Shown one piece after another: positions 10,147 through 51,474 of a stretch of DNA of 64,000 nucleotides. The notes under the pieces were generated by a model. The model had not been told where the DNA came from and searched no databases. It saw only the letters and a program-made list of their open reading frames with translations. The position numbers were made by a program, and so were the translations under genes. Positions within the stretch are counted from its first letter, which is position 1. Each line of letters begins with the position of its first letter. Source of the DNA: Candidatus Enterousia sp. (lineage in GTDB: Bacteria > Pseudomonadota > Alphaproteobacteria > Rs-D84); NCBI GenBank assembly GCA_045647355.1, contig JAZRMF010000005.1:165763-229762 (forward strand), written 5' to 3'.

Positions 10147-10244
10147 AAATACAAAATGTCAAGTAGTCGTAATTTATTTGCATTTTTAACACATTTTATC
10201 TTGATTTTTTCGGATTTGTTCTGTTATAATCACCCCTGCCCTGC

Positions 10245-10286
10245 GGAGCGTTGGCAGAGTGGTAATGCAGCGGATTGCTAATCCGT
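10245..10286 (+). pseudogene. tRNA-Ser(GCU) 5' fragment: 5' half of a disrupted tRNA-Ser(GCU) gene (acceptor stem, D-arm, anticodon stem-loop), broken after GATTGCTAATCCGT
   Basis: GGAGCGTTGGCAGAGTGGTAATGCAGCGGATTGCTAATCCGT joined to 19348..19408 gives a complete 89-nt type II tRNA. A TATAAT -10 box lies ~15 nt upstream. Confidence 0.7.
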
Positions 10287-13832: not shown

Positions 13833-13922
13833 TGGCGGAGCGTGTAGGATTTGAACCTACGCACGACTATAACGCCGTGACGGATTAGCAATCCGCTCCA
13901 TTAACCACTCTGGCAACGCTCC
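13833..13922 (-). tRNA. tRNA-Ser(GCU): Complete tRNA-Ser(GCU), type II with long variable arm, carried inside the island
   Basis: Reverse complement GGAGCGTTGCCAGAGTGGTTAATGGAGCGGATTGCTAATCCGTCACGGCGTTATAGTCGTGCGTAGGTTCGAATCCTACACGCTCCGCCA. Acceptor 7 bp, anticodon GCT, variable stem CACG/CGTG, T-arm GTAGG/CCTAC, encoded CCA. Confidence 0.85.
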
Positions 13923-19347: not shown

Positions 19348-19408
19348 GATTGCTAATCCGTGACCGTGTTATAGCGGTCCATAGGTTCGAGTCCTATACG
19401 CTCCGCCA
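19348..19408 (+). pseudogene. tRNA-Ser(GCU) 3' fragment: 3' half of the disrupted tRNA-Ser(GCU) (anticodon loop, variable arm, T-arm, acceptor, CCA)
   Basis: GATTGCTAATCCGTGACCGTGTTATAGCGGTCCATAGGTTCGAGTCCTATACGCTCCGCCA. The acceptor 3' strand ACGCTCC pairs with the 5' fragment at 10245. Confidence 0.7.
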
Positions 19409-19613
19409 TTTTTTGTACCCTGCCAAGGATGTTAAGAAATCCGGGCATTGCGGACGGGGCATATATTTACCATTGCAAATTTACTTTCTGATTAACAAAG
19501 AACGAGCTATTGTGCCTGACACTGGTTCATATTTTATTTTACAACAAATACTTGACAAATACAAAATATTGTTTACAATTATTCATAATAAACCTATAAA
19601 TTAAGGATAAGAT

Positions 19614-26992: not shown

Positions 26993-28222
26993 TCAGAACG
27001 ACAACGAACCAAATGCATTTAACAATATGTCAAAATAGTTTTTGTCAGATTTTTGTGCCTTCAGCAAGCTTTTGTAGTGTGATAGCGCGGCATCCAACAG
27101 CTTATACTCTGATGGCGCGCATTCTGTTCTTTGCCTGTGATATTCATCATACAACCGTTTCACATCTGGTCTTTGATTAATTTTATGTGTTATATCCGCC
27201 AGCTGCTTTGCCGATAAATATTCATAGTTTGGATATTCTTCACGAATATATTTTAACTTTAAATCTTGATAAGCTTTTTCAGCCCGCCCCAAAGATTCAA
27301 AATATTTTTTATATTTTATACGCAACCCAGCAAGTTTCGTTTCTGCGTAATCTATTAAAATTTTTAATGCCTTGGTATAAAGTTCCGGTTTTTTTATTGC
27401 CTGCTCTATTAATATTTTTTCTAACTTGTCCATAACAATACAGCCAATACGGTAAGAACTGACCTCTGTTGGGTTGGACTCGTGGTCTATTAGTGAATAT
27501 ATCGGTTCTGAATACGCGGAAATTTGAGCCCCCAAACTTCCTAAATCAGGGTATTTTTTATCAATAAAGTGTCCGTATTCATGACTAATTGTACACATAA
27601 AGCCCAGAAAACCCATAAAATCATTATTTCTGAACATGGTTATTGTTGATTCACTATCATAGTATGCATTGCACTCGGTGGATTCGTATCCATAACCACT
27701 AATAATACTGCGTATCTTCATATAAAAATCAGCCAGCAAATCGATAATAGGTTGCTGATTTTTTTTATCCAGGTAACGAATCTTCAATTTATCATTGATT
27801 CCAAAATAATTATTTATCTCGTTCACAATCTTTAACGCAAGTTCTTGCCGCTGTTTTCGGTTCAAAGACTTAAATGTCCATGCAGCCAATAAAATATCAT
27901 CATCAGAACAAATAATTTGAGCATAGATATCCGCGTATTTTTGCGCGACCGTATCCATTGTATTTTTAGACATAGATTCTTTTAATTTAATCCGAAAATC
28001 ATCATCGGACAGGCCACCTGGTTTACGACGCCCTTTGTATATTTTGGCCAATTCCGGATTAAAAGTTGAAAATTCACCGACGATAGAATCCAACAACCCT
28101 GGGTCACGTTCCACCATTTCGGTAAATTCTTGTAAAGTTATATTGTTCGGCGCATACCTTTCATATATATCTTTAATCTTGCGTTTATTTATCATAATGA
28201 ATTTCCCTGCTATTAGTATCAT
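26993..28222 (-). CDS. Hypothetical protein with HExxH motif (TISHEYGHF); possible zincin-like metalloprotease/effector. Start probably at 28195 (MINKRK).
   Basis: Intact 400-aa ORF. The HEYGH motif is in a hydrophobic context. Confidence 0.45.
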   Translation of the reverse strand: MILIAGKFIMINKRKIKDIYERYAPNNITLQEFTEMVERDPGLLDSIVGEFSTFNPELAKIYKGRRKPGGLSDDDFRIKLKESMSKNTMDTVAQKYADIYAQIICSDDDILLAAWTFKSLNRKQRQELALKIVNEINNYFGINDKLKIRYLDKKNQQPIIDLLADFYMKIRSIISGYGYESTECNAYYDSESTITMFRNNDFMGFLGFMCTISHEYGHFIDKKYPDLGSLGAQISAYSEPIYSLIDHESNPTEVSSYRIGCIVMDKLEKILIEQAIKKPELYTKALKILIDYAETKLAGLRIKYKKYFESLGRAEKAYQDLKLKYIREEYPNYEYLSAKQLADITHKINQRPDVKRLYDEYHRQRTECAPSEYKLLDAALSHYKSLLKAQKSDKNYFDILLNAFGSLSF

Positions 28223-28473
28223 TCTACAATAGAAATGATATTAAAACAACAAATTCACATTGAACCATAGAAAATATAAATTTGCACCTATTATTCGACA
28301 TTTTATTTTTTGTAATACAATACAGATTGTACAGAAACAGAAAACAGAAGTAAAAAATGATATTCAACTGGAAAAAAGAAGAAAACGGGGATATAATCGT
28401 CACACCTGCGTTGCCTATGGGGCAGATTCTTTCGGTTGTATCCAGACAACATTAAAGCCACATAATAACAATA

Positions 28474-28499
28474 AAAATGCCCCGTTTGGGGCATTTTTC
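28474..28499. terminator. Terminator hairpin ATGCCCCGTTTGGGGCAT (first of three copies of one terminator family)
   Basis: Reverse-complement copies occur at 29431..29456 and 31545..31570. Confidence 0.5.
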
Positions 28500-28558
28500 A
28501 ATATTAAAGAAAAACCTTGAAAACCGAATATTTTAATGATAGACTGCATTTCGCACAT

Positions 28559-29423: not shown

Positions 29424-29454
29424 GGATTTAAAAATGCCCCAAACGGGGCATTTT

Positions 29455-30408
29455 TTAATCCTCGTCCAAGTTAACCAATTTATATTTCCGTGAACCGACA
29501 CCAATTTTTTCGGCCGCCTCTAATGTATGCAAGCCGTTACGATCAGCGATACGTTCCATCAGTTTTTTATTACCATCGGCATTGGACACCATATCTATAC
29601 CGGCCTGATCAATGGCAACCGGGTCGCGTGATACCAAAATACCAATATCATGAATATCTGGTTCGGCTGGGTTTGCATTACAATCGCAATCGATACTGAT
29701 TCTGTTTAATACATTGATATAAACCATATTGTCGCGTCCAACATAATCTGTAACCGCCTTGGATGCGTCTGCCATAGATTCCAAAAACGCATCTTGTTCA
29801 CCACCCCATGGATTATCTTTGGATGTGCCCCCACTGTGAATCCATGCCTTGCCCATGGACGATGCAAAACCAATAGAAATGTTTTTTAATGCGCCACCGA
29901 ATCCGGCCATCTGATGTCCCTTGAAATGCGATAAAACGACATATGACGGATAATTCGTAAAATGCGTTCCGACATAATTTTCGGTCAAACGATTTCCACC
30001 TTTGACGGGCAACGTCATACTGCCCTCTTCGTCCATGATATCAACAGGCGCGACATCCAAGAATCCACGTTCACGTATTGCCGCCCAATGTGATTTACTG
30101 TCGTTGCGGTTGCCGGCATAGGCAGTATTACATTCAACAATTGTACCGTCCAATTCTTCAATTAAATCTTTGATAAGTGTTGGTCGCAGATAGTTTGTCT
30201 TGGCGGATTCACCGGTACTCATTTTTACACCGACTTTCCCGGTTGGTTTCCAATTTAATGCATGATATGCACGAACCAAACCCGCGGGCGAAATATCACG
30301 TGTAAAATATACAACCGGCACATCATTCGAAGCGGTTGCATAATGCAAACCAACCCCTGTCGTAATTACAGCCGCAGCACCCAATGCCGCAATAGTTGAT
30401 TTTTTCAT
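29455..30408 (-). CDS. Secreted DUF362-like domain protein (317 aa)
   Basis: Signal peptide MKKSTIAALGAAAVITTGVG. A conserved C-terminal CDCN motif region is typical of DUF362 by memory. Confidence 0.4.
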   Translation of the reverse strand: MKKSTIAALGAAAVITTGVGLHYATASNDVPVVYFTRDISPAGLVRAYHALNWKPTGKVGVKMSTGESAKTNYLRPTLIKDLIEELDGTIVECNTAYAGNRNDSKSHWAAIRERGFLDVAPVDIMDEEGSMTLPVKGGNRLTENYVGTHFTNYPSYVVLSHFKGHQMAGFGGALKNISIGFASSMGKAWIHSGGTSKDNPWGGEQDAFLESMADASKAVTDYVGRDNMVYINVLNRISIDCDCNANPAEPDIHDIGILVSRDPVAIDQAGIDMVSNADGNKKLMERIADRNGLHTLEAAEKIGVGSRKYKLVNLDED

Positions 30409-31441: not shown

Positions 31442-31568
31442 TTTTGACTCCTTTCACTTTGCAACATACAGAATATACGAAAGTTTTGCAAGTGAATAAC
31501 TTGAATACTCCATACGGCATCTTTGGCGGCGGCCAATGAATTTAAAAATGCCCCAAACGGGGCATTTT

Positions 31569-32093
31569 TTATTTTTTAATCTTTACCATTTTCTTAAGGC
31601 TTTTTAAACCTTTTGATAAATCGCTTTCTTCGGCCGGTTTAACCTCGCCTGCCTCTAAAGCAGAGCAACAATGTGGGCATTTTGTCGCCGTCATATCAAC
31701 CGTCTGTTTACAATATGGGCACGCACGTGTTGTAACCGCCTTTTTAGATTTCATCTTGTTAACGGTACGAACAATCAAGAACGCCGCAAACATTGTGATA
31801 AGGAAACTGATAACCGTATTCAAAAACACACCCAAATTAAGTGTTGTGGCACCTGCGGCCTGGGCTTCGGCGATTGTGTTAAATGTCTGGCCATTTCCGC
31901 CCGCCAAAACAAAGAACCATTGTGAAAAATCAACACCGCCAATTAAAAGCCCAATCGGTGGCATAATAACATCTTTGACCAATGAATTGACCACACTGGT
32001 CATCACAGACCCGACGATGATACCGATTGCCATGTCGATTGCATTACCGCGTTCCGCAAAGTCGCGAAATTCCTTTAAAAATTTACTTGCCAT
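31569..32093 (-). CDS. mscL: Large-conductance mechanosensitive channel MscL with an unusual C-terminal Cys4 zinc-ribbon extension
   Basis: MASKFLKEFRDFAERGNAIDMAIGIIVG... The C-terminus CPYCKQTVDMTATKCPHCC is not part of canonical MscL. Confidence 0.8.
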   Translation of the reverse strand: MASKFLKEFRDFAERGNAIDMAIGIIVGSVMTSVVNSLVKDVIMPPIGLLIGGVDFSQWFFVLAGGNGQTFNTIAEAQAAGATTLNLGVFLNTVISFLITMFAAFLIVRTVNKMKSKKAVTTRACPYCKQTVDMTATKCPHCCSALEAGEVKPAEESDLSKGLKSLKKMVKIKK

Positions 32094-37456: not shown

Positions 37457-37487
37457 AAAAAACCCCGCAATCGCGGGGTTTGTTTTT
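37457..37487. terminator. Terminator hairpin CCCCGCAATCGCGGGG downstream of fabI
   Basis: Same core as the hairpins at 47460 and 59989. Confidence 0.5.
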
Positions 37488-38298
37488 ATTGTTCGTCCAT
37501 CGCTTTCAGCAACAGATTCTTTAATTCGTTCGGCATCATGCCAGTTGAAGAATATCCACAATCAACGTGATGAACTTCCCCAGTTACGGCAGATGACAAA
37601 TCACTTAACAAATACAGCGCCGCACCCGACACATCATCCAATGTCATATTACGACGAAGCGGTGTTTGTTCTGAATTAAGGCGCAACAACGATTTCATAC
37701 CGCCAACGCCACTGGATGCCAATGTCAAAATTGGACCAGCGCTGATTGCATTAATGCGGATTTTATCGCGCCCCAAATCCGATGCCAAATAACGAACCGA
37801 CGAATCCAATGCAGATTTTGCAACACCCATCACGTTGTAATTTGGAACGGACTTTTCACCACCGAAATATGTTAATGTGACGATTGAACCACCGTCTGTC
37901 ATAAGTTTCGATGCCCGACGTGTTAAATCGACCAAAGAATACACAGAAATATCCATTGTGTTTTTGAAATTTTCACGCGTTGTATCGGCATAGCGGCCCG
38001 TCAATTCGTTTTTGTCCGAAAACGCAATCGCATGCAACATACCGTCCAAATGATCCCATTCTTTTTCAATGTTTGCAAACAGTGAATCCATTTGTTCGTC
38101 GTTTTGCACGTTGCATTCTTGGACGAATTTGGCACCAATTTGTTCCGCCAATGGACGCACACGTTTTTCCAATGCCGGCATCGCATACGGCATCGCAATT
38201 TCTGCACCATTTTCATGCGCACGTTTGGCAATCGCCCATGCCATAGACCAATCGTTTGCAACGCCAGTAATTAAAATCTTTTTACCTTTTAATAACAT
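37486..38298 (-). CDS. fabI: Enoyl-[acyl-carrier-protein] reductase (NADH)
   Basis: MLLKGKKILITGVANDWSMAWAIAKR... with SDR-type Tyr/Lys. 270 aa. Confidence 0.85.
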   Translation of the reverse strand: MLLKGKKILITGVANDWSMAWAIAKRAHENGAEIAMPYAMPALEKRVRPLAEQIGAKFVQECNVQNDEQMDSLFANIEKEWDHLDGMLHAIAFSDKNELTGRYADTTRENFKNTMDISVYSLVDLTRRASKLMTDGGSIVTLTYFGGEKSVPNYNVMGVAKSALDSSVRYLASDLGRDKIRINAISAGPILTLASSGVGGMKSLLRLNSEQTPLRRNMTLDDVSGAALYLLSDLSSAVTGEVHHVDCGYSSTGMMPNELKNLLLKAMDEQ

Positions 38299-38372: not shown

Positions 38373-40913
38373 TTATTTTTTAAACGCGTCTTTGATATTT
38401 TGAATCATATCGGTATTCATTAATGCATCGCCCCCAATGCCACCGGCAACACCCGCGCCCGCCGCAATCGCACCGCCCTTTAATTTCTTGGCGGTTTTAT
38501 CCTTTTGTTCGTTCCATTCGGTTGCATCTTTACCTTCGGGGTCGGTTAATGCACGTGACAATGATGTAAATGCACCATCGGTTATACCCGTTGATGCGTA
38601 TTTATATAATCCACTTTCCGCTTTATCATACACAACTTCTTGTTCTATGCCTGGGCGCATCCCCAATGCCTTTTTAGTGTTTTTCAGATTATCCGCCAAT
38701 GATTTATATTCGCTGTAATACCCCAATAGTTCATTACCCCCCGGCAGAGTTATTTCTTCATTACCCGCCTTGGATGATTGTCCTTTGCCGTATTCACAAC
38801 GGAACGTGGCCAGGTACGCCGTCATATCTTGTTCGGCGGCTTCGTCCGCCTGTTTTTCAGAATACGCAGATGCCGCGGTCATTAACCCCAAACCCGTTGC
38901 CGCCGTAGATGCCGCCGTTAATGTACGGTTTGCCAACGATTGTTCGTTTTCTTTGGCCTTTTTATATTTATCTTCGGCTTGTTTTAACTCGTTTAATTCG
39001 GTCGGTGCCCTCCGCATATTATCGAGATCTGATGTCGTTTCAGATGTTGTTACGATTGGGTCGTTTGTGGGATTTGGGGTTTCTTCGGTATTTTCAATAC
39101 ATGCATTTGCTTCATCACGATGATATCCATCGGCACAATCGCAAGAACCATCTTCGGTTGGCACAAGGTGCGCATCGTCGGCATTGCAATCACATGTACC
39201 ATCTTCGTTTTGCGTTCCCCCACCACATGGTAGTTCTGGGGGGGCTTCCACACCTATATCTTCATCCACATCGTCCGCAGACACAGGTTCCTCGCCAGTT
39301 TGTTCTGTATCGCTGGCAACACATGTTTTTTTATCCTCGGATTGTTGCAGGTTTTCACCGTTACATATGCATTCATCATTTTCACCAGGTGTTCCACCCG
39401 ATTCCATACAATCACCACATACAACTATGAACGAGTTATAATCTTCATTTATATAATCTGATACCGAGCGAAATGCTTCATAATCACACCCAGGAAATGA
39501 TATACCCAACAAAGCGTTGCTATCAATATCGCTTAATTTAAATTTTCCATTTTCATCTGTAACGGTATCTGTAACCTGCGAATTGACGATAATTTTGGCA
39601 CCGTGAATCACTTTATCTGTACCTTCGGAATGATATTTGAGTGTCGCAGTAATGGTGACTTTACTGGTTGGGGTATTAGTTTTTTTCTTGCAGAATCCTT
39701 GGCTGGCCTCGTAATTATCTTCGCATTTTGTGGAAATACAAATTTTGTATCCTGTCCGATTGGCGGCCACACATTTTCCTTCGGTTGTGTGTGGCAACAG
39801 CATATTACCCGTACAATCACGTGTTTCACCGTTTTTTTCACAGATTTTATAATTCGTATTACATTCTTTCTTGCCAATAACACCACATTCCGGATTTGCT
39901 GGATCCACATTATTTGCGCAAACAGATTTATCTTGGCCGCCCTCCATACATTCGCATATGCGTTGCATTTCGCTGGCCTTGCCTTTACAGAAATTATCGC
40001 ACACTGTTTGTGCATTTGATCCTTTGCATTTTCCGGCCTGATCATTAAACAAGTGTGAAAATCTACATCTCGATGAATTGTCTATATGAGAATCACACCA
40101 ACAAAAATTTCCAGAACCTGATCCTTCCTTGGTCATACATTGCCCTGCTGTAACAATGGAACCTGCACTGCCACTTTGCCCACTTGGCTGTGATGCGACG
40201 CAGGTCAATTCCACCGTTGCATTTTGTAATGTATCCGCCTTTCTGCCAACAATGGCGCATCCGTCATGCGATATACTTACATTCTTGGTTTTATCAACAT
40301 CGTTTAATTTAAACTTACCATTAGAATCAGTTTTTACCTTTTGTGTATTGCTAACTTCGACCAGCGCGCCAGAAAGTACCTCGCCGTTACGATTTTTCAC
40401 GACCCCATTGATTGTGATTTTATTACTTGTATTTTGTGGTTGGGTTTGGGTGGATACAGGTTCCGTAGAACATGTCACATACCAAGATTTGGACTTATCC
40501 CGGTTATTGTTATGCAGAAAGAAATTTGCATTGGTTTTATTTTTATCACAACGTGCGAAATCTGACAAGGGACTTACTGTTCTTTCTTTATACACCCTGC
40601 GATATACATATAGTTCGTCGTCAATCCACATATATAGTAAATTGTTCAAGTTTTTACATAATGTCACACATTCTAAAACCGGTGCATCTGAATAGCCATC
40701 CACCCAACGACCATCAAATTCACATCTTTTAATCCCTGTCGTAAATGCCGCGTAATCGCCGATATTACATGAATCCGGATTGCCCGGTTGGTTACAATAC
40801 AGCGTATCAGTGGAGTCTGCTTGACATGACCCACAATATGCCGTTAACGGTGCGGCACACAATACAAAAACAAAAATCCAACGCAAAAATCGCAAGGCTT
40901 CTCCCCTATACAA
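38373..40913 (-). CDS. Secreted Cys-rich 846-aa protein with CarboxypepD_reg-like beta-sandwich repeats and the shared C-terminal ~200-aa module (paralog of 40961..43423)
   Basis: Signal peptide. ITINGVVKNRNGEVLSGALVEV...TDSNGKFKL repeated twice. Many CxxC/EGF-like Cys clusters. The C-terminal module is nearly identical to residues ~400-590 of the neighbouring gene. Confidence 0.6.
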   Translation of the reverse strand: MYRGEALRFLRWIFVFVLCAAPLTAYCGSCQADSTDTLYCNQPGNPDSCNIGDYAAFTTGIKRCEFDGRWVDGYSDAPVLECVTLCKNLNNLLYMWIDDELYVYRRVYKERTVSPLSDFARCDKNKTNANFFLHNNNRDKSKSWYVTCSTEPVSTQTQPQNTSNKITINGVVKNRNGEVLSGALVEVSNTQKVKTDSNGKFKLNDVDKTKNVSISHDGCAIVGRKADTLQNATVELTCVASQPSGQSGSAGSIVTAGQCMTKEGSGSGNFCWCDSHIDNSSRCRFSHLFNDQAGKCKGSNAQTVCDNFCKGKASEMQRICECMEGGQDKSVCANNVDPANPECGVIGKKECNTNYKICEKNGETRDCTGNMLLPHTTEGKCVAANRTGYKICISTKCEDNYEASQGFCKKKTNTPTSKVTITATLKYHSEGTDKVIHGAKIIVNSQVTDTVTDENGKFKLSDIDSNALLGISFPGCDYEAFRSVSDYINEDYNSFIVVCGDCMESGGTPGENDECICNGENLQQSEDKKTCVASDTEQTGEEPVSADDVDEDIGVEAPPELPCGGGTQNEDGTCDCNADDAHLVPTEDGSCDCADGYHRDEANACIENTEETPNPTNDPIVTTSETTSDLDNMRRAPTELNELKQAEDKYKKAKENEQSLANRTLTAASTAATGLGLMTAASAYSEKQADEAAEQDMTAYLATFRCEYGKGQSSKAGNEEITLPGGNELLGYYSEYKSLADNLKNTKKALGMRPGIEQEVVYDKAESGLYKYASTGITDGAFTSLSRALTDPEGKDATEWNEQKDKTAKKLKGGAIAAGAGVAGGIGGDALMNTDMIQNIKDAFKK
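38440..38960. repeat. ~520-bp near-identical direct repeat (copy 1) shared with 41655..42175
   Basis: Antisense spurious ORFs in both copies translate to near-identical peptides (…ASLPSGSVNARDNDVNAPSVIPVDAYLYNPLSALSYTTSCSMPGRIPNAF…; MDDCPLPYSQRNVARYA…). Confidence 0.7.
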
Positions 40914-40960
40914 CCGTTACGAAAATTATAGAAAATTTTAAATTGATGTGTCAAACGGTT

Positions 40961-43423
40961 TTAATCACTATCACCACATGGGCGATTATGGATGGTTGTG
41001 ACAATATCCTGACAGGATTCAGCGCTACGATCGCACTTATAACGTGGTGATTGGTTCACACGAATTTCATATTTAATATCGGGTACCAATTCTGGCAAAT
41101 CTTGTTCGTAACGTTTGGCAAGTATTTCCGCAAAGCCCGCTGGATTTGAATCAACGGTTATGCATTGCATTTCGGCATTTGTGGTATCCTCTTTAAGGAA
41201 CTTTACAACCTGTGTAACATCGCCCTTTATTGTATCTTCAACTGTTTTTTCAGATGTTGTTTCTTCCCCAGTTACTTTGTTTTTGCTTTTTACTGTTCGT
41301 ATTGGTGCATCAAATTCCGTAGATTCCATAGATGCAAAGAACCATGTCCACGGGTATGCGATTACCGCCGAAACCTGACCACCTGGATTACGCCCAGGGC
41401 GCCCATTTTCCGCGTTTACCACTTCTTCGCCTGCTTCGGGTTCTGTGACTTCTTCATCTGTTTCAGTTATCTCTTCATCTGTTTCAGTGGTTTCGCCTTC
41501 GGGGTTGGTGAGTGTTCCCATCGCGCCCCCCAGCGCAGTTCCAAGTCCACCACCGATACCATCCGTATTTCTTACACCATCTAAAATGTCACCAAGGCCG
41601 GTTCCATCACCGCCACTTTTTTTACCATTTATTAACATATCCCCGGCAATGCCACCAACAATACCCGCACCCGCCGCGATTAACCCCGTTTTAAGATTCT
41701 TGGCCGTCTTTTCTTTTTGCGCATTCCATTCGGCGGCATCTTTACCTTCGGGGTCGGTTAATGCACGTGACAATGATGTAAATGCACCATCGGTTATACC
41801 CGTTGATGCGTATTTATATAACCCACTTTCCGCTTTATCATATACAACTTCTTGTTCTATGCCTGGGCGCATCCCCAATGCCTTTTTCACATTTTTCAAA
41901 CTGTCCGCCAATGATTTATATTCGCTGTAATACCCCAACAGTTCATTTCCCCCCGGCAGAGTTATTTCTTCATTACCGGCCTTGGATGATTGTCCTTTGC
42001 CGTATTCACAACGGAACGTGGCAAGGTACGCCGACATATCTTGTTCGGCGGCTTCGTCCGCCTGTTTTTCAGAATACGCAGATGCCGCGGTCATTAATCC
42101 CAAACCCGTTGCCGCCGTAGATGCCGCCGTTAATGTACGGTTCGCCAACGATTGTTCGTTTTCTTTGGCGGCCTTGTAACGTTCTATCAACGCGGTTAGA
42201 CGATCACTGGTAACCTGATGTTCTGCAACCCGCCCTATAAAGGCCAATGCATTGGCATTAGAGTTGCCAGCATTTGGTAACGCGGTCAATATATTTGTCT
42301 CTTGTGTTTGTAAAGTCTGGGTTAATTCATCAATATCGCCTTGTGTTGGCACCCGTTGAGATTGGCTAATGCCGTCGATAACACCGCCCGCAAGAGATAC
42401 CAATGCGTTATTGCCGCCCCCCTGGGCGATGGCCGACAATCCCCCCGAGCCCTGGCCTGATGTTACACCGGCGGAACCGCCACCGCTTTGGCCACCCGTG
42501 GCGGGGTATTTTTGTTTCCATTTATTAACCGCGCTTATAAATTGTTTTGCCGATGCCATATAATCAGTGTTTTTGCTGTCAATCAATGAATCTGTGCCAT
42601 ATGAACACACACCATAAAGTTTATTGCCCGCGATATAACCACCACCACTGTTACCAGGCCAATTATCACAGGTTGTGGCAAGGATGTCTGGATGTTTGGC
42701 AGCCCGTCTTAAATATTGACCATTACATGCCGGTGTGAGGTTTCCAGAACAATCTTCGAAAACGATATTACACTCACTGGCCTTTAGCCGATCGGTATCA
42801 CCAAACAACCCCATTAATAAAATCCCTTTCTCAGATAACTGGTCTTCGAAATTTCTTAATATATCTTCAAATGATCTTTCTTTGCTGGTCGTCAGGTTGG
42901 TTTCACCTAGAACCTCTCTTATTGTATTAAGTTCTCGTTCACTAAGTACCTTGACATAACCATAACCGGCGTTTATAACACCCGTGATTGTTTGTTTCGG
43001 ATCGGTTGGATCAAAAAATGTATCACCATAATATTGGGGGTCTTCAACTAAAAATATCGCCCAGTCCCCCGGCTTGTACATCTCTTTGTACCCTGTTTCC
43101 AGTAACTTTACTTTGAATTCCTGTTTTTTATAATTAGAGGCTTTAAATTCTATTGGTTTATCATTGGTACAATGTCCCGCCGATAGTATCAAATTTTTCG
43201 CAATATATTGCCCCGTACATACATAAGCGTTACTAGGACCAACCACTTCTTTTAATCGCACAAAACTGTTGTATGGCGGTTTTGCCCAATCAGAATCACT
43301 AACATAATAACGATTATCTGTATCACCGACGCCACAGACGGCGGGTGTGCAAACCATCACAGCAAAAACAAACGAAAAAAGAACGCGTAAAAAGTGCACT
43401 TTCCCCCTCTTGGATATTTTCAA
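40961..43423 (-). CDS. Secreted 820-aa protein: trypsin-like (S1) serine protease domain plus shared ~200-aa module plus acidic Thr/Glu-rich C-terminal region
   Basis: Signal peptide. TGQYIAKNLILSAGHC (His site), GDWAIFLV (Asp), DNWPGNSGGG (Ser site). Confidence 0.6.
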   Translation of the reverse strand: MKISKRGKVHFLRVLFSFVFAVMVCTPAVCGVGDTDNRYYVSDSDWAKPPYNSFVRLKEVVGPSNAYVCTGQYIAKNLILSAGHCTNDKPIEFKASNYKKQEFKVKLLETGYKEMYKPGDWAIFLVEDPQYYGDTFFDPTDPKQTITGVINAGYGYVKVLSERELNTIREVLGETNLTTSKERSFEDILRNFEDQLSEKGILLMGLFGDTDRLKASECNIVFEDCSGNLTPACNGQYLRRAAKHPDILATTCDNWPGNSGGGYIAGNKLYGVCSYGTDSLIDSKNTDYMASAKQFISAVNKWKQKYPATGGQSGGGSAGVTSGQGSGGLSAIAQGGGNNALVSLAGGVIDGISQSQRVPTQGDIDELTQTLQTQETNILTALPNAGNSNANALAFIGRVAEHQVTSDRLTALIERYKAAKENEQSLANRTLTAASTAATGLGLMTAASAYSEKQADEAAEQDMSAYLATFRCEYGKGQSSKAGNEEITLPGGNELLGYYSEYKSLADSLKNVKKALGMRPGIEQEVVYDKAESGLYKYASTGITDGAFTSLSRALTDPEGKDAAEWNAQKEKTAKNLKTGLIAAGAGIVGGIAGDMLINGKKSGGDGTGLGDILDGVRNTDGIGGGLGTALGGAMGTLTNPEGETTETDEEITETDEEVTEPEAGEEVVNAENGRPGRNPGGQVSAVIAYPWTWFFASMESTEFDAPIRTVKSKNKVTGEETTSEKTVEDTIKGDVTQVVKFLKEDTTNAEMQCITVDSNPAGFAEILAKRYEQDLPELVPDIKYEIRVNQSPRYKCDRSAESCQDIVTTIHNRPCGDSD
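41655..42175. repeat. Copy 2 of the ~520-bp direct repeat
   Basis: See 38440..38960. Confidence 0.7.
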
Positions 43424-43497
43424 TGGATTATAAGAAAATTTACAATTTTATGTCAACAAAAAACGGACACTTTTGCATCCGTTTTTATTGTTTCCTA

Positions 43498-45612
43498 TTA
43501 TGCAGCCAATACACCTACAGACATTGTTATGCGTCTAATACCACTGCTGATAGATTTTTCTTTATTTATTTTGGCACGAATAATTTCGCCGGTATGATTA
43601 ATGTGTGTTCCACCGCACAATTCGCATGATACATCGCCCGCTGTTATTACACGCACGACATCGCCATACTTTTCACCAAACAATGCCATAGCACCGCGTT
43701 GTTTTGCCGCATCGATTGACATTTCTTCGTGCGTAACGATCATATCCGCATTTATCCATTCATTGACCAGATTTTCAACTGCTGTCTTTTCTTCGTCGGT
43801 CATTGCACGACCAAACGAAAAGTCAAAACGAACAGAATCTGGTGCAACCTTAGACCCACGTTGTTCAACATCGGTATTCAAAACCCTGCGTAATGCCGCC
43901 TGCAATAAATGCGTTGCCGTATGTGCACGTGCGGTTTGTGTACGGTTTTGCATATTTACAATTGTTTTAACCGTATCGCCCACAGAAACCTTGCCAACCA
44001 CGGTTCCACGATGCAAAACGATATTGTTTGCACGCGCGGCCTCGGTCACATTAAGGACGGTCGTATCACCAATTTTTAATTCGCCCATATCGCCGACCTG
44101 GCCACCCTGGGTACCATAGAAATTGGTTTTATCCAATGCAACCTCTACCGTGTCGCCTTCATTTGCAGAATCAACAAATTCGCCGTCACGTAATATCGCC
44201 AAAACCTTGGATTCCATGGTTTCGTCCGGCGCATATTTTGATTTGTCATCGGTCGCAGGCAATTCACCACGCGATTCCCAAAATGTTTTTGTTCCGCGTG
44301 TATCGGCGCGACCGCGTTCTTTTTGTGCGGCCATTTCCGATTCAAAACCCGCGACATCAACACTGATATTTTTATCACGCAAAATCATTTGTGTTAAATC
44401 AAGTGGAAACCCATACGTGTCAAATAATTTGAAGGCGACCGTACCCGGCAAGATTCCATTTTGAACCTTTGGTACTTCGTTATCCAATAATTTCATACCG
44501 TTGTTCAGCATATCCGCAAAGGAGTTTTCTTCGTTATTTATAACCTCTATAACATGAGATTGATTCTGAACCAATTCTGGATATGCGGCGCCCATTTCCG
44601 CCACCAATGCCGGATATAATTTCGACAGTAACGCACCCGAATGTCCCAATAATTGTCCATGGCGCATTGCACGACGTAATATGCGACGAATCACATATCC
44701 ACGGTCGCTATTTGATGGAATTACACCATCCGCAATCGCAAAACCAACAGAACGTAAATGGTCGGTAATAACCTTGAAACTGGTTCTATTTTCCGCCGTT
44801 TCCACGACACCAGTCACATCACTGACCGCACGTTTAAGGTTCACAAATAAATCTGTATCATAATTATCCGTCTTGCCCTGGAGCATTGCCGCCCAGCGTT
44901 CCAACCCCGCACCAGTATCAACATTTTTATTTGGTAAATCGGTCAGATTGCCATTTGCATCGCGGTTATATTGCATGAAAACATCGTTCCATATTTCGAC
45001 ATAACGTCCACCGTCTTCATCTGGGCTGCCCGGTAATCCCCCCGGCACATCTTCACCAAAATCATAAAAGATTTCACTGCACGGGCCACATGGACCGGTA
45101 TCACCCGCCGACCACCAATTATCTTTGCCAAGACGAATGGCCTCTTTGCCCGCAATTTTTTTCCACAATGTTGCGGCCTCGTCATCGGTTTCGTGTGCGG
45201 TCACAACCAATCTGTTTGGATCAATGCCAATAACGTTGGTCAATAAATCCCATGACATTTCCAATGCGCCTTCTTTGAAATAATCGCCAAAAGACCAATT
45301 ACCCAACATTTCAAAGAAAGTATGATGCCGCCCGTCAACACCGACATCTTCTAAATCGTTGTGTTTTCCACCGGCACGAATACACTTTTGAACGTCGGCA
45401 ACACGCGGGGCGGGTGCAGCTTCGGTTCCAAGGAATATATTCTTCCACGGCACCATACCGGCAACCGTAAACAAAACCGTTGGGTCATTTGGAATTAACG
45501 ATGCAGACGGAACAATTTTATGTCCATGTGATTCAAAATAATTCAAAAACAATTTTCTTATATCATTGTATGTCATTTTTGCCCCTTTTATGTTGTGGAG
45601 ATTATAGCGCAT
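43498..45612 (-). CDS. alaS: Alanyl-tRNA synthetase, short form lacking the C-terminal C-Ala (DHHA1) domain; start probably 45576
   Basis: N-terminal MTYNDIRKLFLNYFESHGH. Editing-domain motifs HTATHLL and CGGTH. The protein ends ~40 aa after CGGTH. Confidence 0.8.
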   Translation of the reverse strand: MRYNLHNIKGAKMTYNDIRKLFLNYFESHGHKIVPSASLIPNDPTVLFTVAGMVPWKNIFLGTEAAPAPRVADVQKCIRAGGKHNDLEDVGVDGRHHTFFEMLGNWSFGDYFKEGALEMSWDLLTNVIGIDPNRLVVTAHETDDEAATLWKKIAGKEAIRLGKDNWWSAGDTGPCGPCSEIFYDFGEDVPGGLPGSPDEDGGRYVEIWNDVFMQYNRDANGNLTDLPNKNVDTGAGLERWAAMLQGKTDNYDTDLFVNLKRAVSDVTGVVETAENRTSFKVITDHLRSVGFAIADGVIPSNSDRGYVIRRILRRAMRHGQLLGHSGALLSKLYPALVAEMGAAYPELVQNQSHVIEVINNEENSFADMLNNGMKLLDNEVPKVQNGILPGTVAFKLFDTYGFPLDLTQMILRDKNISVDVAGFESEMAAQKERGRADTRGTKTFWESRGELPATDDKSKYAPDETMESKVLAILRDGEFVDSANEGDTVEVALDKTNFYGTQGGQVGDMGELKIGDTTVLNVTEAARANNIVLHRGTVVGKVSVGDTVKTIVNMQNRTQTARAHTATHLLQAALRRVLNTDVEQRGSKVAPDSVRFDFSFGRAMTDEEKTAVENLVNEWINADMIVTHEEMSIDAAKQRGAMALFGEKYGDVVRVITAGDVSCELCGGTHINHTGEIIRAKINKEKSISSGIRRITMSVGVLAA

Positions 45613-46415
45613 TATGCTGCACGTGCAACAATTTTTGCCGCGGATTCAAAAGTTTTTAAAAATCTTTTGATTGTTTCATTTATCATTGCCTGGGCATTGG
45701 CACCAACGGGTGTCCGACGTCCGTATTTTACCGGCGCATGTCCCATTTTAATGGCAACGTAATTCGTTTGATTCATATATATCGGCGACATATCCGGATG
45801 GCGCAGTTGCATAAACGCCTTTAATGCCAGCCATAAAACCTGGGCAATCGGCACACGATAACGCGTATGGCGCAAATCACGATTTAATTTTGGCAATATT
45901 TCAGTTATGAAATCGGCAAATTCGTCCAACACACACCGACGTATGATTGTACCGGTAATCTCAAAGTGCGGACCGTTATTTCCCTGGCCGCCACCGTTTA
46001 CCCACGAGGGCGTAATTTTGAATATGTCGGTAATGTTATCGCTGATGGTTGTTGCATTTTGCACAATCGCAAAAATATTTTCTGTGACATTTGGCACACC
46101 TGCATCCAACAAGACATCGTCTGCATCCAAGAATACAATCCAATCACATAAAATTTTCAACCCGCGCATAGATTTAACCGCGTTAATGCGTGATTCAAAT
46201 TCGCCATAATTTTTATCTGCATTTATTATATGTAATGGGCCGCGCCATCCCATTCTGCGCAACATACGACGTTCAATATTCTGATTCGGATTATCATTAT
46301 AAATAATCAATGTAAATGCACGCCCAATCTTGACCAACGCTGGGACTGATATACGCAATGCATTAGCATCCATCACAGTTATAACAACGGCAAGATTGGT
46401 TTTCGATTTGAACAT
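45612..46415 (-). CDS. Putative glycosyltransferase (DxD motif FLDADD)
   Basis: 267 aa. DADD motif after a hydrophobic strand. Confidence 0.45.
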   Translation of the reverse strand: MFKSKTNLAVVITVMDANALRISVPALVKIGRAFTLIIYNDNPNQNIERRMLRRMGWRGPLHIINADKNYGEFESRINAVKSMRGLKILCDWIVFLDADDVLLDAGVPNVTENIFAIVQNATTISDNITDIFKITPSWVNGGGQGNNGPHFEITGTIIRRCVLDEFADFITEILPKLNRDLRHTRYRVPIAQVLWLALKAFMQLRHPDMSPIYMNQTNYVAIKMGHAPVKYGRRTPVGANAQAMINETIKRFLKTFESAAKIVARAA

Positions 46416-48894: not shown

Positions 48895-51474
48895 TTATGA
48901 AAAAGTATAACCTCTAAGTTTTTGTTCGTATAATTGCGCAACAAGATCCTTATTCTGCTCTTGAATCTTGGATGCACGTCTTGGGCCAAATCGCGTCAAG
49001 GATGGATCTTGCAATGTATCCCAATATGCCATAAGTTGCTTGAATACATCTGGGTGCTTATCATCCCATTCGTCGATCTTTTTCTGACGCGCGTCAATCT
49101 GCGTTTGTGCGGCTTCGATATCCGCGGTTGCCTTGGTATAGTCGTCAATATGCTGTTGCCGTTCAGCGATTTTATTTTGCGTATCACTAAGGTCGTTCTG
49201 GGCATCAGTATAACCAGTATACCCCGTCGCACCATAAATATAATTGGTTATACTTTCTAAATTAGCCGCCCTAAGCCCTGGGTGGAATAAATCAAAATCA
49301 GAACGTCCGCCAATCATACTTAAATCTAATTTACCTCTATCACCAATGCCACGCAAATCTTCTTTCAATTTATCGCGCTTGGCTTCAATTTGTTGTAACT
49401 TTGCCGTTTCTTGGGTTGGTGTAAAACCACCGGTGGTAACCGCAAGTTCATCAGCATCCAACTGTTCCAAATCTTCATATATGCGTTGTGCACTGGATAA
49501 AGAACTTATTAATTGGTTATACTCATCAACCCTATTTTGGCGTACGTATTCTTCGGGCTTAAGAACAGTGTTTATATCGCTTTCGGCACTGCGTAACATT
49601 TCTTCGGGGGTGCCCGCATATCCCAAACCCGTTAATCCCGCAGTAGCGGTTCCCCTTTTGGCATTGCCTTTATCCAACGACTTTTTAAATTCCGATTGCG
49701 TGGCCGGGTCTGTTGATACGTCAGCGTCATGCGCAGCCTGAGCCGCCGCCTTGTCCGCGGTATTTTGTGCTTCCCAATCTTCGTGCGCTTTACGCATTTT
49801 ATTACTGGTAAATCGACCATTAAATCTCATATTACGACGACGGAATCTGTTAACCACAAACGCCGCGCCACGACCAATTCCCATACATGCGGCACGGAAT
49901 GTTTTGTCTATGGCATTGGTAACAAATTTGACACCTTCGTTTTTATTCCAAGATAATTTTTCATTTCCAAAGATATCAAATAAATCTTTATCTTCTTTAA
50001 GGGTATCCATTATTTTGCTGGTGGTATTGCCATACTTAATAACATGCAACAACTCCATCGCAATTTTTGCTTTTTCTACGGTTTCTGGTTTTCCATCTGC
50101 GGCGGCACGCATTGCAAGTTCCGATGCCAAATTGCGCAGTTTGCGACCACTTTTTAATGCGTCTTTTAGGGTGCTTTCCATATCTGGGTCGCCTTGGAAT
50201 TCTTTTAATGCGTCCCCAAGCCACCCAAACGCCGCCGCGGCCTTTGGGTTTGTAACACTCAATGCCTTTTGAATTTTGTCGGAATTTTCAACAAGTTTAT
50301 TTAAATCATCGGTGGTTTTAATTTTTGCTTTGTCCATTTGTTTTACAATGGCACCGACCTCGTCTGGGTGTTCAAAAATTCTGGTACCACGCAATTCTTC
50401 GTATTTCTTGAAATAATCATCATACGTATCACCGGCCCATTTTTGAATTTGTTCGGCCAATGTCTGCTCTTTTTCGTGTTTCGGCGCGATGTAATTTGCA
50501 GAATCTGTTTTATCATAATCGACATCTGTTTTCGCCTTGGTAATGGCGCTTGTGATTGGTTTATCGCCACCTTCTTTGGCTTCAAATGCCGCGAAAACAT
50601 CTTCATTAGAATATATTTCTTCGAAGAAATCAAAATAATGATTTTTAAAATTATCGACCTGGGCGGCACTATTGATTGTGGTACTCCACCCATAATATTC
50701 ATTCGAGATAATATTTAAATTTTTATCACGCACATAGTCTTCAAGTTTGGTTGCCGGCGCAAATTCTCGCTGTACAACCCTGTCCAAGGCCCGTTTAACA
50801 GAATCTTCTGCATTGGATAATTTAGATGAGATTTCAATGATTTTCTTGCGGAATTCGGCATCGGTATTATATTTTTTATCGGTGACTTTGCGGCGCAAAC
50901 TTGGCAGTTCGGCACCAGAAATTCCAAGGGATGATAATACATATGAATCTGTAACTTTTTCTAGCAAATCAACCATAGATTCAATGGCCGTTTCGGTCGT
51001 GGCCTGTGCCGTCATTGTATCTGAAGACACATCGTCAAAAAAGTGGGCATTATCTGCAATAAACTGTATAACCGAATTTTTATACCCCGCATATGCCGCC
51101 GTATCATGTTTCATTTGATACCATGTGTCACGGCAAATATTGTATAAATCTTCCCATTCTTTGTCACCCAAATCACCGAATGCCGGGTAATCTTTAACTT
51201 TAAGGAATCCGTTTTTGGCGGTTGGGGGTTCACGAACAAATGGGTCTTCAGGATTCGGCCCCGTTCTTTCAAGGAATTTAGCCCATTTACGTTGGTCATC
51301 ATTCAATTTATCGGATGCCGCCGTGCCGGAACCAACAAGGTCACTAAAACGTTGCCACTGCTCGGTGTGCTGGACACGCCATTCGTTCATACGCTGGGTT
51401 TTAAATACTTTTTCCAAAAAATCTGACGTTGCCGACATACGTGTCCCCTTTGGTTGTGCCACCACACACACCAC
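48895..51474 (-). CDS. Large hypothetical protein (859 aa; probable start 51438 after AAGGGGA), charged and coiled-coil-rich; effector-like orphan
   Basis: Intact ORF with no motifs recognised. Confidence 0.45.
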   Translation of the reverse strand: MVCVVAQPKGTRMSATSDFLEKVFKTQRMNEWRVQHTEQWQRFSDLVGSGTAASDKLNDDQRKWAKFLERTGPNPEDPFVREPPTAKNGFLKVKDYPAFGDLGDKEWEDLYNICRDTWYQMKHDTAAYAGYKNSVIQFIADNAHFFDDVSSDTMTAQATTETAIESMVDLLEKVTDSYVLSSLGISGAELPSLRRKVTDKKYNTDAEFRKKIIEISSKLSNAEDSVKRALDRVVQREFAPATKLEDYVRDKNLNIISNEYYGWSTTINSAAQVDNFKNHYFDFFEEIYSNEDVFAAFEAKEGGDKPITSAITKAKTDVDYDKTDSANYIAPKHEKEQTLAEQIQKWAGDTYDDYFKKYEELRGTRIFEHPDEVGAIVKQMDKAKIKTTDDLNKLVENSDKIQKALSVTNPKAAAAFGWLGDALKEFQGDPDMESTLKDALKSGRKLRNLASELAMRAAADGKPETVEKAKIAMELLHVIKYGNTTSKIMDTLKEDKDLFDIFGNEKLSWNKNEGVKFVTNAIDKTFRAACMGIGRGAAFVVNRFRRRNMRFNGRFTSNKMRKAHEDWEAQNTADKAAAQAAHDADVSTDPATQSEFKKSLDKGNAKRGTATAGLTGLGYAGTPEEMLRSAESDINTVLKPEEYVRQNRVDEYNQLISSLSSAQRIYEDLEQLDADELAVTTGGFTPTQETAKLQQIEAKRDKLKEDLRGIGDRGKLDLSMIGGRSDFDLFHPGLRAANLESITNYIYGATGYTGYTDAQNDLSDTQNKIAERQQHIDDYTKATADIEAAQTQIDARQKKIDEWDDKHPDVFKQLMAYWDTLQDPSLTRFGPRRASKIQEQNKDLVAQLYEQKLRGYTFS

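Follow-up and report, generated by a model that had tools for sequence, protein, structure and literature searches.

Gene conversion in a glycine-zipper-like module shared by two adjacent genes of Candidatus Enterousia

Two adjacent genes and their shared module

The stretch of DNA analyzed here (hereafter, the window; 64,000 nucleotides (nt), 41.6% GC, from contig JAZRMF010000005.1 of Candidatus Enterousia sp.; all positions are window coordinates) contains two adjacent genes on the minus strand, denoted A and B, whose products share a single module, the core of which has been homogenized between the two genes. Gene A occupies positions 38373-40895 and encodes 840 amino acids (aa) from a TTG codon at 40895, and gene B occupies positions 40961-43399 and encodes 812 aa from a GTG codon at 43399. 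The longest open reading frames (ORFs) begin upstream of these codons, at 40913 for A (38373-40913, 846 aa) and at a TTG codon at 43423 for B (40961-43423, 820 aa); residue and codon numbers termed 'listed' below refer to these longest ORFs, which are separated by 47 nt. The pair is flanked by alaS (43498-45612) and fabI (37486-38298), the latter followed by ligA and the gene for a class-A penicillin-binding protein (PBP), all on one strand. The neighborhood of A and B in the window consists of housekeeping genes or ORFs without a Pfam match, and no mobile-element signature was seen around the two genes. Throughout, loci of relatives are denoted by L-numbers and their proteins by P-numbers.

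Comparison of the two genes using blastn produced a single alignment (38435-38957 versus 41647-42169; 524 bp, 92.7% identity, two gap openings, E = 0), and BLASTP aligned listed residues 648-833 of A with 414-599 of B (169 of 186 identical, 91%), with no other shared region. The first-pass annotation of this DNA, which had reported a shared module and DNA repeat between adjacent genes, C-terminal in the 846-aa protein and internal in the 820-aa protein, is borne out by these alignments. Its estimate of about 520 bp at 95-100% identity, however, holds only for a 435-nt core (17 differences, 96.1% identity) and not for the repeat as a whole, and the glycine-zipper-like stretch it described is present but turns out to be two Gly/Ala-rich stretches rather than one, denoted here zippers 1 and 2. 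In the A copy of the module (38415-38972; listed aa 648-833), zipper 1 lies at 38862-38924, an invariant Cys within 38790-38804, and zipper 2 at 38418-38477; in the B copy (41627-42184; listed aa 414-599), the same elements lie at 42074-42136, within 42002-42016, and at 41630-41689, respectively. These were the only copies of the module found when the window was searched with 55 family members using tblastn, and the repeat is the sole long one within the 64 kb, detected by an ungapped repeat search as a 300-nt direct repeat with 86% identity. Two plus-strand ORFs in the repeat (38437-38718 and 41445-41930) were rejected as genes, being antisense shadows of Gly-rich codons.

Each of the two genes is directly preceded by a promoter-like site on the minus strand with the sequence TTGACA-18-TATAAT, which matches the sigma-70 consensus at 12 of 12 positions: that of B (43427-43456) lies just past the terminator-like hairpin of alaS, and that of A (40925-40954) within the 47 nt that separate the two listed ORFs. 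No other 12/12 sites occur in 8.5 kb. The -10 boxes stop 4 nt (B) and 12 nt (A) short of the listed TTG codons, which is too near and argues that the longest-ORF starts are wrong for both genes. Alignment of the 5' regions of A, B, L005 and L001 reveals a conserved GGGG-rich run resembling a Shine-Dalgarno (SD) sequence, followed by TTG/GTG-C-x-TTTTT, which encodes M-(R/H)-F-L-R; in B, a GGGGGA run precedes the GTG codon at 43399, and the start position is kept in L005 and L001. Judging from this conservation, translation likely starts at GTG 43399 in B and at TTG 40895 in A, and the proteins, previously described as giant, are not, at about 840 and 812 aa from conserved starts with an SD-like run. 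A near-consensus promoter was also considered as a trait of the entire family and rejected because only L001 and L005, the orthologs in the same chromosomal slot, have one.

Both predicted N termini resemble signal peptides, with a basic stretch followed by a hydrophobic one, as read from the sequences MHFLRVLFSFVFAVMVCTPAVCG in B (43331-43399, minus strand) and MRFLRWIFVFVLCAAPLTAYC in A (40833-40895, minus strand). The residues before the Cys of the leaders (VMV-C and PAV-C in B, FVL-C and TAY-C in A), read by eye, do not match the lipobox L-[AS]-[GA]-C. From these leaders, likewise judged by eye, we infer that A and B are exported via Sec.

The head of B, that is, the region preceding the module (42500-43321, minus strand), is a predicted chymotrypsin-fold (S1) serine protease with an intact triad, distant from characterized ones. 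It matches the Pfam family PF00089 (Trypsin) with 32.6 bits (cut-off 20.6, E = 9.5e-8), as does its ortholog in L005 (36.6 bits), and the motifs containing the triad, His in SAGHC (43169-43183), Asp in DWAIF (43052-43066) and Ser in GNSGG (42641-42655), are represented by invariant residues (SAGHC, DWA, GNSGG) in an alignment of eight protease-head homologs. A single-sequence phmmer search of the head against the PDB gave no match; a profile was needed, and the profile of the eight homologs matched S1 proteases (7uxg_A, 7e-7; urokinase, 1e-6), with the His and Ser motifs aligned. The trypsin-like protease proposed earlier for the 820-aa protein is thereby corroborated, whereas its fusion to the module, which had been considered unusual, instead defines a conserved subfamily that includes the slot ortholog L005, members at two other loci, P0057, P0066 and P0220. 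The 220-aa tail of B (40964-41626, minus strand) begins with an acidic, Gly-rich linker, after which comes a domain of about 140 aa with conserved Cys, which blastp and tblastn found in common with L005 and L027 only. The tail has no Pfam match, and a word-indexed search returned nothing for it; when the B and L005 tails were compared by hhalign with 41 OmpA tails from family members, the probability was 0.2%, and the possibility that the B tail is a degenerate OmpA domain was rejected.

Protein A contains two transthyretin-like beta-sandwiches of the CarboxypepD_reg type, the first at 40239-40415 (listed aa 167-225; PF13620, 51.8 bits, cut-off 32.3) and the second at 39489-39626 (listed aa 430-475; PF13715, 48.7 bits, cut-off 32.2), both on the minus strand, with Cys-rich regions on either side of the second one (39099-40151, minus strand; listed aa ~255-410 and ~499-605). 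Together with the 42 Cys located outside the module, these domains agree with the Cys-rich beta-sandwich repeats described previously for the 846-aa protein. The Cys-rich regions are partly conserved in L001 and L003, and other family members show CPL1-like or cEGF matches. The protein ends 13 residues past the module, with an A-type C-terminus encoded at 38376-38414.

Gene conversion in the module core

Recurrent intragenomic gene conversion has homogenized the 435-bp core of the module in A and B recently, a conclusion that we hold with high confidence. The tract extends over 38523-38957 in A (listed codons 653-797) and 41735-42169 in B (listed codons 419-563), both on the minus strand. In a codon scan, A and B are about 22-28% identical ahead of codon 653 of A, where the identity abruptly rises to 97%; it remains at 95-100% up to codon 797, save for a patch at codons 741-746; past codon 797, the 3' part of the module (about 110 nt) is only 62-69% identical at the nucleotide level. 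The same three segments behave differently when each gene is compared with its slot ortholog: in the N-flank, the nucleotide identity is 22% for A versus B, 59% for A versus L001 and 57% for B versus L005, and in the 3' segment, 69%, 70% and 72%, respectively, whereas in the core A and B are 96% identical to each other compared to 81% (A versus L001) and 74% (B versus L005). At codons whose encoded amino acid is unchanged, A and B agree in 92% of third positions, against 50-70% in the comparisons with the orthologs, which excludes purifying selection as the cause of the likeness between A and B.

The gene order alaS-[family gene]-fabI-ligA-PBP is conserved in sister genomes, but the slot between alaS and fabI is filled by different family members, namely, an A-like gene only in L001, a B-like gene only in L005, and genes with other heads in L006, L022 and L054. 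Protein identity to the slot orthologs is 89-92% for AlaS and 97% for FabI, compared to 41-55% for the heads and 76-78% for the module. In a neighbor-joining tree of the modules, the two window copies group together, as do L001 and L002, L003, L004 and L005, L027 and L035, L024 and L031, L032 and L041, and L040 and L043. Thus, the module cores group by genome, whereas the flanks and heads track orthology, as exemplified by L002 and L004, whose N- and C-flank sequences agree. Three other genomes contain independent tracts, each bordered differently, in which the identity reaches at least 95%; these span 146 nt (L001/L002), 194 nt (L003/L004) and 289 nt (L027/L035).

Conversion also involves a third paralog, P0099 (L081, 10001-11713; ENA sample ERZ28633979), which resides between argS and acpS and has a different head. 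It is 98.5% identical to A over 605 nt that comprise the module and the C-terminus and run exactly to the stop codon. Within the core, P0099 is identical to B at all 4 informative sites in codons 661-701, and each of the 13 sites at and beyond codon 716 matches A, which places a recombination breakpoint between codons 701 and 716. The argS-slot orthologs of P0099, such as L002, end in OmpA, so the 3' end of P0099 looks replaced.

Taken together, the comparison reveals a sharp tract with excess likeness at synonymous sites as well as phylogenetic incongruence between tract and flanks combined with mosaicism. The recent gene conversion or recombination suggested in the first-pass annotation is accordingly upheld by the abrupt 5' edge, the third-position identity, the grouping of cores by genome and the mosaic third paralog. 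GC-biased conversion was considered and set aside because the GC content at third codon positions is uninformative: it is 43-44% in the module and 34-37% in the heads, and that of housekeeping genes equals that of the module.

The module family and its predicted structure

A single-sequence search identified 55 relatives of the module, and a profile search of a set of 5.8 billion proteins identified 444; an exhaustive HMMER search over 1.84 billion representatives yielded 885 clusters (50% identity), among which 753 had E-values below 1e-30. The family is compact, with no distant outliers among the 150 matches listed. When one genome of each GTDB species was scanned, 232 module stretches were detected, with more than one copy in several genomes, and no copy was found on the viral contigs of IMG/VR. 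The carriers are metagenome-assembled genomes (MAGs) from rumen, gut and feces labeled Alphaproteobacteria, proteobacterium, Rickettsiales or Candidatus Enterousia. The exceptions are L011 (labeled Bacteroides fragilis) and L046 (labeled Muribaculaceae), which come from Bacteroidota bins and are most likely mis-binned contigs; L011 carries, beside the family gene, the c2-c1 neighbors typical of Enterousia (see below). Judging from these searches, the module family is restricted to gut and rumen Alphaproteobacteria of the Rs-D84/Candidatus Enterousia group. Enterousia (order Rs-D84) have genomes of less than 1 Mb with few pathways and possibly a partner-dependent life (PMC12306168).

In an hmmsearch with the module profile, A and B scored 354 and 347 bits, respectively, over profile positions ~38-268, and both conform to the invariant or nearly invariant positions of the family (EQS..NR, G45, DM.AY..T..C.YG, LPGGN, PGIE.E, GLY, S..RA and the zipper-2 motif GN..IN). 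Neither Pfam nor NCBIfam contained a match to the module at E <= 1, and a Pfam scan of 60 family members returned head and tail domains only, none for the module. Against PDB sequences, the best E-value of the module profile was 1.4, and a query consisting of the zippers only hit Filamin with E = 2.5; neither match is meaningful. The match to a well-known domain that the first-pass annotation had allowed for was thus not obtained.

The sequence around the module varies widely: the N-terminal extension measures 25-1118 aa and the tail 0-1989 aa. In B, as in most relatives, the position of the module is internal. Domains identified in the 60 scanned members are CarboxypepD_reg (36), C-terminal OmpA (35), CPL1-like Cys-rich (8) and Trypsin (3), and one database member (P0234) contains ankyrin repeats; the OmpA peptidoglycan-binding motif (TD...N..LS..RA) is present in 41 of 82 family tails. 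The module is the constant part, and heads and tails vary between paralogs and, within the alaS-fabI slot, across species. The suggestion of a cassette-like exchangeable domain was therefore right with respect to modularity but had the roles reversed, the module being constant and the heads and tails variable. In two giant members (L007, 5779-11814, 2012 aa; L050, 3896-10660, more than 2255 aa), the module comes straight after the leader and is followed by a Cys-rich region of about 600 aa, hydrophobic sequence around aa 960-1000 and a Cys-poor, K/E-rich C-terminal half with HExxH motifs, for which Pfam gave nothing convincing.

Clustering of the flanks of 80 loci identified three recurrent slots: c2-c1-family, argS, and the alaS-fabI slot of the window. 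About 45 loci (for example, L015, 2318-7416, L020, L025 and L065) have the order c2, c1, family member with an OmpA tail, where c2 is a 289-aa protein with a leader and about 7% Cys, and c1 is a Cys-rich protein of about 550 aa with a leader and a glycine zipper of its own. These loci include additional conserved neighbors (c3-c7); all of c1-c7 lack Pfam matches, and none of them is present in the window. In the argS slot, the order is response regulator, histidine kinase, argS, family gene, acpS. One contig, L027 (CAMVAR010000036.1, 7002 nt), combines histidine kinase and argS upstream of the family gene with fabI and ligA downstream, and its tail is related to that of B; this arrangement stems either from recombination of two slots via the module or from chimeric joining of the MAG. 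Six contigs (L003, L008, L009, L023, L049 and L057) begin or end inside or beside the module, which suggests that the intragenomic module repeat breaks short-read assemblies of genomes of the Enterousia group.

In the family alignment, the module begins with a heptad-like helix followed by EQSLANR, the Thr/Ala/Gly-rich zipper 1, an acidic helix (AEQKAD..AE.DM.AY) and T-F-R-C-x-Y-G, the Cys of which is present in all 330 sequences; then come LPGGN, a helix, PGIE-E..D, GLY, S..RA, a basic run and the GxxxG-rich zipper 2, up to GN.LIN. An AlphaFold2 (AF2) model built from 117 sequences (mean predicted local distance difference test score (pLDDT) 69.6; 80-90 at residues 50-130 and 150-185) contains two long helices (residues 29-72 and 164-201), between which lie a beta-hairpin (74-84) and a further helix (95-119); an earlier run with 40 sequences had this topology too. 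A Foldseek search of the better AF2 model against the PDB retrieved generic helical bundles (best E = 1.4). We also applied mean-field direct coupling analysis (DCA) to the 330 sequences, rerun without gap columns after these had swamped the first run: 8 of the top 60 couplings connect the two long helices in antiparallel fashion compared to 3.1 expected (p = 0.012), namely, 34-201, 38-194, 42-194, 47-197, 49-180, 51-175, 52-180 and 63-173. The module is accordingly modeled as a predicted helical hairpin stalk, in which the zippers pair at the open end and the closed end bears a knob. In this model, a coiled-coil would run into a long helix bearing the Gly/Ala/Thr zipper 1, followed by a knob of about 90 aa with one invariant Cys, after which the second long helix would return antiparallel and end in the GxxxG zipper 2. 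An antiparallel hairpin implies that head and tail exit the module on the same side.

Both flanks of the module bear domains of extracytoplasmic type, often Cys-rich, and this, along with the OmpA domain in about half of the family, is the reason why we take the module to be a device for envelope anchoring or oligomerization; the odds that it is a stalk with either or both of these functions, given the sequence and structure predictions, appear somewhat better than even. The zipper hairpin may be inserted in the outer membrane or the inner membrane, or be bundled in the periplasm. In the explanation that we favor overall, A and B are tandem members of a multigene family private to this lineage, each with its own consensus promoter-like site and Sec-type leader and each pairing a lineage-variable head with the constant module of about 190 aa, which would hold exchangeable heads at the cell envelope. 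Homogenization of the core, which recurs in sister genomes with different borders and extends to the paralog at the argS locus, would keep the stalks of the paralogs mutually compatible. To this explanation in its entirety, that is, private family, core conversion and envelope stalk, we assign a probability of about 0.6.

Several observations weigh against it. Compatibility of the paralogs as the reason for homogenization is purely inferential, and conversion may be neutral. The pLDDT at the zippers is only 50-57, and the DCA enrichment, although independent of AF2, is modest. Zipper 1 is too polar to be a transmembrane helix of the classical kind (the median Kyte-Doolittle hydropathy over 19 residues is 1.0, with only 1% of members at 1.6 or above), and zipper 2 is borderline (median 1.62, with 57% of members at 1.6 or above). 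Searches of Pfam, NCBIfam, PDB sequences and Foldseek provide no homology link between the module and membranes or oligomerization, and in the Pfam searches the C-terminal OmpA domain (PF00691) is absent from A and B themselves. Finally, L081 comes from another sample and so may stem from a different genome than the window, and the sequences of the relatives are taken from MAGs, where the assembly of repeats can go wrong.

The alternative that survives best, although we consider it unlikely, is a two-pass inner-membrane anchor, with the leader cleaved, a periplasmic head, zippers 1 and 2 inserted as a hairpin, a cytoplasmic knob, and the tail back in the periplasm; such a knob might link the heads in the periplasm with a partner in the cytoplasm. 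A lone span at zipper 2 would place the OmpA tails in the cytoplasm, which is impossible, so the inner-membrane spans number two or none, and extracytoplasmic-type domains at both termini suit an even number. The hairpin backed by AF2 and DCA, the K/R-rich run ahead of zipper 2 (KxxSxKRVKxG), which suits the positive-inside rule, and the knob, which is the best conserved part and has only one Cys while the flanks are Cys-rich, all fit this topology. However, zipper 1, which has a median hydropathy of 1.0 and frequently carries Glu or Gln in the middle of the helix, would be a poor stop-transfer sequence after a large translocated head, and OmpA-bearing members are also basic after zipper 2 (P0054).

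A bolder extension of the envelope-stalk explanation, rather doubtful as a whole, would be an undescribed display system of the Rs-D84/Enterousia group, in which an oligomerizing helical glycine-zipper hairpin anchor in the outer membrane would present exchangeable heads towards partner or host cells, with conversion keeping the stalks of all paralogs compatible for co-assembly and the c2-c1-family (OmpA) operon included. The heads named for this scenario are proteases, Cys-rich adhesin-like arrays and ankyrin repeats, along with the giant HExxH-bearing tails.

Recent tandem duplication followed by head replacement through domain shuffling, with the modules alike because they are young rather than converted, is improbable. 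It would account for the adjacency and common strand of A and B, for the promoter, 5' untranslated region and leader architecture that they have in common, and for the single gene found in the slot of sister genomes. Nevertheless, the shared 5' region (promoter and leader) is about 60% identical between A and B at the nucleotide level and the 3' third of the module 69%, both indicative of old divergence, and the central 435 nt alone reach 96%; furthermore, orthologs of both head types exist in sister genomes, the module is mosaic with a third locus, and other genomes have independent tracts.

Still less probable is a glycine-zipper membrane-permeabilizing toxin, or a cassette of a polymorphic toxin or contact-dependent inhibition (CDI) system, the analogy drawn in the first-pass annotation. 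Glycine zippers are known in membrane-damaging effectors, for example, an effector of the type VII secretion system (T7SS) described in PMC12955049, and the family is modular and includes giant relatives with HExxH motifs. The constant element, however, is the module, which is internal in B and C-terminal in A, with the heads varying, contrary to polymorphic toxin, CDI and Rhs systems; no toxin or immunity domain was identified and no immunity-like small ORF adjoins the genes, which are flanked by the housekeeping genes alaS and fabI. The proteins have Sec-type leaders, not T5, T6 or T7 delivery domains, about half of the family is fused to OmpA, and several copies occur per genome of less than 1 Mb. 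An assembly duplication, which had been raised as a caveat, or a chimeric join of a collapsed repeat is the least credible option: the window probably comes from a MAG and six contigs of relatives stop in or near the module, so the repeat does disturb assemblies, but the two copies differ at 7% of sites with identity graded along the repeat, both lie inside long intact in-frame ORFs with their own promoter-like sites and leaders, and both gene types occupy the same slot in independent assemblies.

Apart from the two genes, several other features of the window were recorded. Sequences at 10194-10286 and 19348-19413 are partial look-alikes (79-83%) of the tRNA-Ser(GCT) region at 13833-13922; neither was called as a tRNA by ARAGORN or Rfam, and they may be tRNA remnants or attachment-site-like duplications. 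A 32-nt intergenic sequence near tRNA-His has one exact repeat and one inverted copy at 94% identity (31540-31571, 29426-29457 and 28470-28502). Long ORFs without a Pfam match at 1e-5 are located at 3233-5455 (740 aa), 26993-28222 (409 aa), 45612-46415 (267 aa) and 48895-51474 (859 aa), and the 267-aa ORF beside alaS is found in the same position in L005, L006, L022 and L054.

The Rs-D84/Enterousia bacteria are widespread in gut and rumen and have never been cultured. Several long paralogs built on one private module in such small genomes are likely central to the dealings of the cell with its surroundings; paralogs of the A and B type are rapidly diverging, and have consensus promoter-like sites and fixed chromosomal slots. 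The module family, uncharacterized and private to its lineage, is a candidate for a new Pfam domain, and A and B represent a clean natural case of concerted evolution confined to one sub-domain. Because the repeat breaks or may mis-join MAG assemblies, gene counts and synteny nearby need care. If the module is indeed a helical membrane anchor, it would represent a novel means by which diderm bacteria retain proteins at the envelope.

Comparison with known systems

Two classes of known systems were considered for the pair and rejected. Autotransporters and type V secretion were dismissed because there is no match to a translocator in Pfam or NCBIfam and the module is predicted to be helical, and C-terminal sorting signals (PEP-CTERM, GlyGly-CTERM, LPXTG and the type IX secretion system C-terminal domain) because there is no match in NCBIfam or Pfam and the module is internal in B and most relatives.

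Individual parts of the two proteins have closer parallels. Serine proteases tethered to the envelope include the autotransporter SPATEs and the anchored proteases of the DegS/HtrA type. Like these, B appears to join an S1-fold head with an intact triad to a non-catalytic anchoring part behind a Sec-type leader, but it lacks the autotransporter beta-domain and the PDZ domain in Pfam searches. The family also resembles tethers of the OmpA/Pal/MotB type (PF00691) in that 35 of the 60 scanned members end in an OmpA domain, and these tails, along with the peptidoglycan-binding motif found in half of those compared (41 of 82), are an argument for a function of the family in the envelope. Unlike in OmpA-type proteins, the module itself is unrelated to OmpA, the tail of B is not OmpA-like, and A stops 13 residues past the module.

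The zippers are reminiscent of the glycine zipper 2TM lipoproteins of the outer membrane (SlyB/Pcp, YfgH and the Rickettsia 17-kDa antigen), which have Ala/Gly-rich GxxxG helices of similar composition and a predicted two-helix hairpin, and GAGvVGGivGN of zipper 2 aligns with GGAVLGGFLGN of SlyB. Relatives of such glycine-zipper proteins that stabilize the outer membrane can be coupled to peptidoglycan-binding domains. The likeness is at the motif level only: homology to SlyB was rejected, given that hhalign against Escherichia coli SlyB covered 16 columns with a probability of 1.8%, and the Pfam glycine-zipper families were not matched by A and B (E <= 1) or by 60 family members (1e-3). In contrast to SlyB-type lipoproteins, A and B have no lipobox, their zippers are separated by about 130 residues that include a knob predicted to be folded, and large heads and tails are attached.

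In evolutionary behavior, the closest analogs appear to be families of paralogous outer membrane proteins (OMPs) such as Hop/Bab of Helicobacter pylori. The babA, babB and babC genes of this group encode paralogous OMPs with conserved ends and variable middles, in which a conserved anchor is combined with a variable exposed domain, reside at fixed loci and undergo gene conversion. Unlike Hop/Bab, the anchor of the present family is predicted to be helical rather than a beta-barrel, has no match to an OMP family, and no phase-variable repeats were seen in the family. As in Hop/Bab, several paralogs coexist in each small genome and fixed slots are filled by different members, with conserved 5' ends (promoter and leader) and 3' ends (anchor), divergent middles, and intragenomic conversion tracts.

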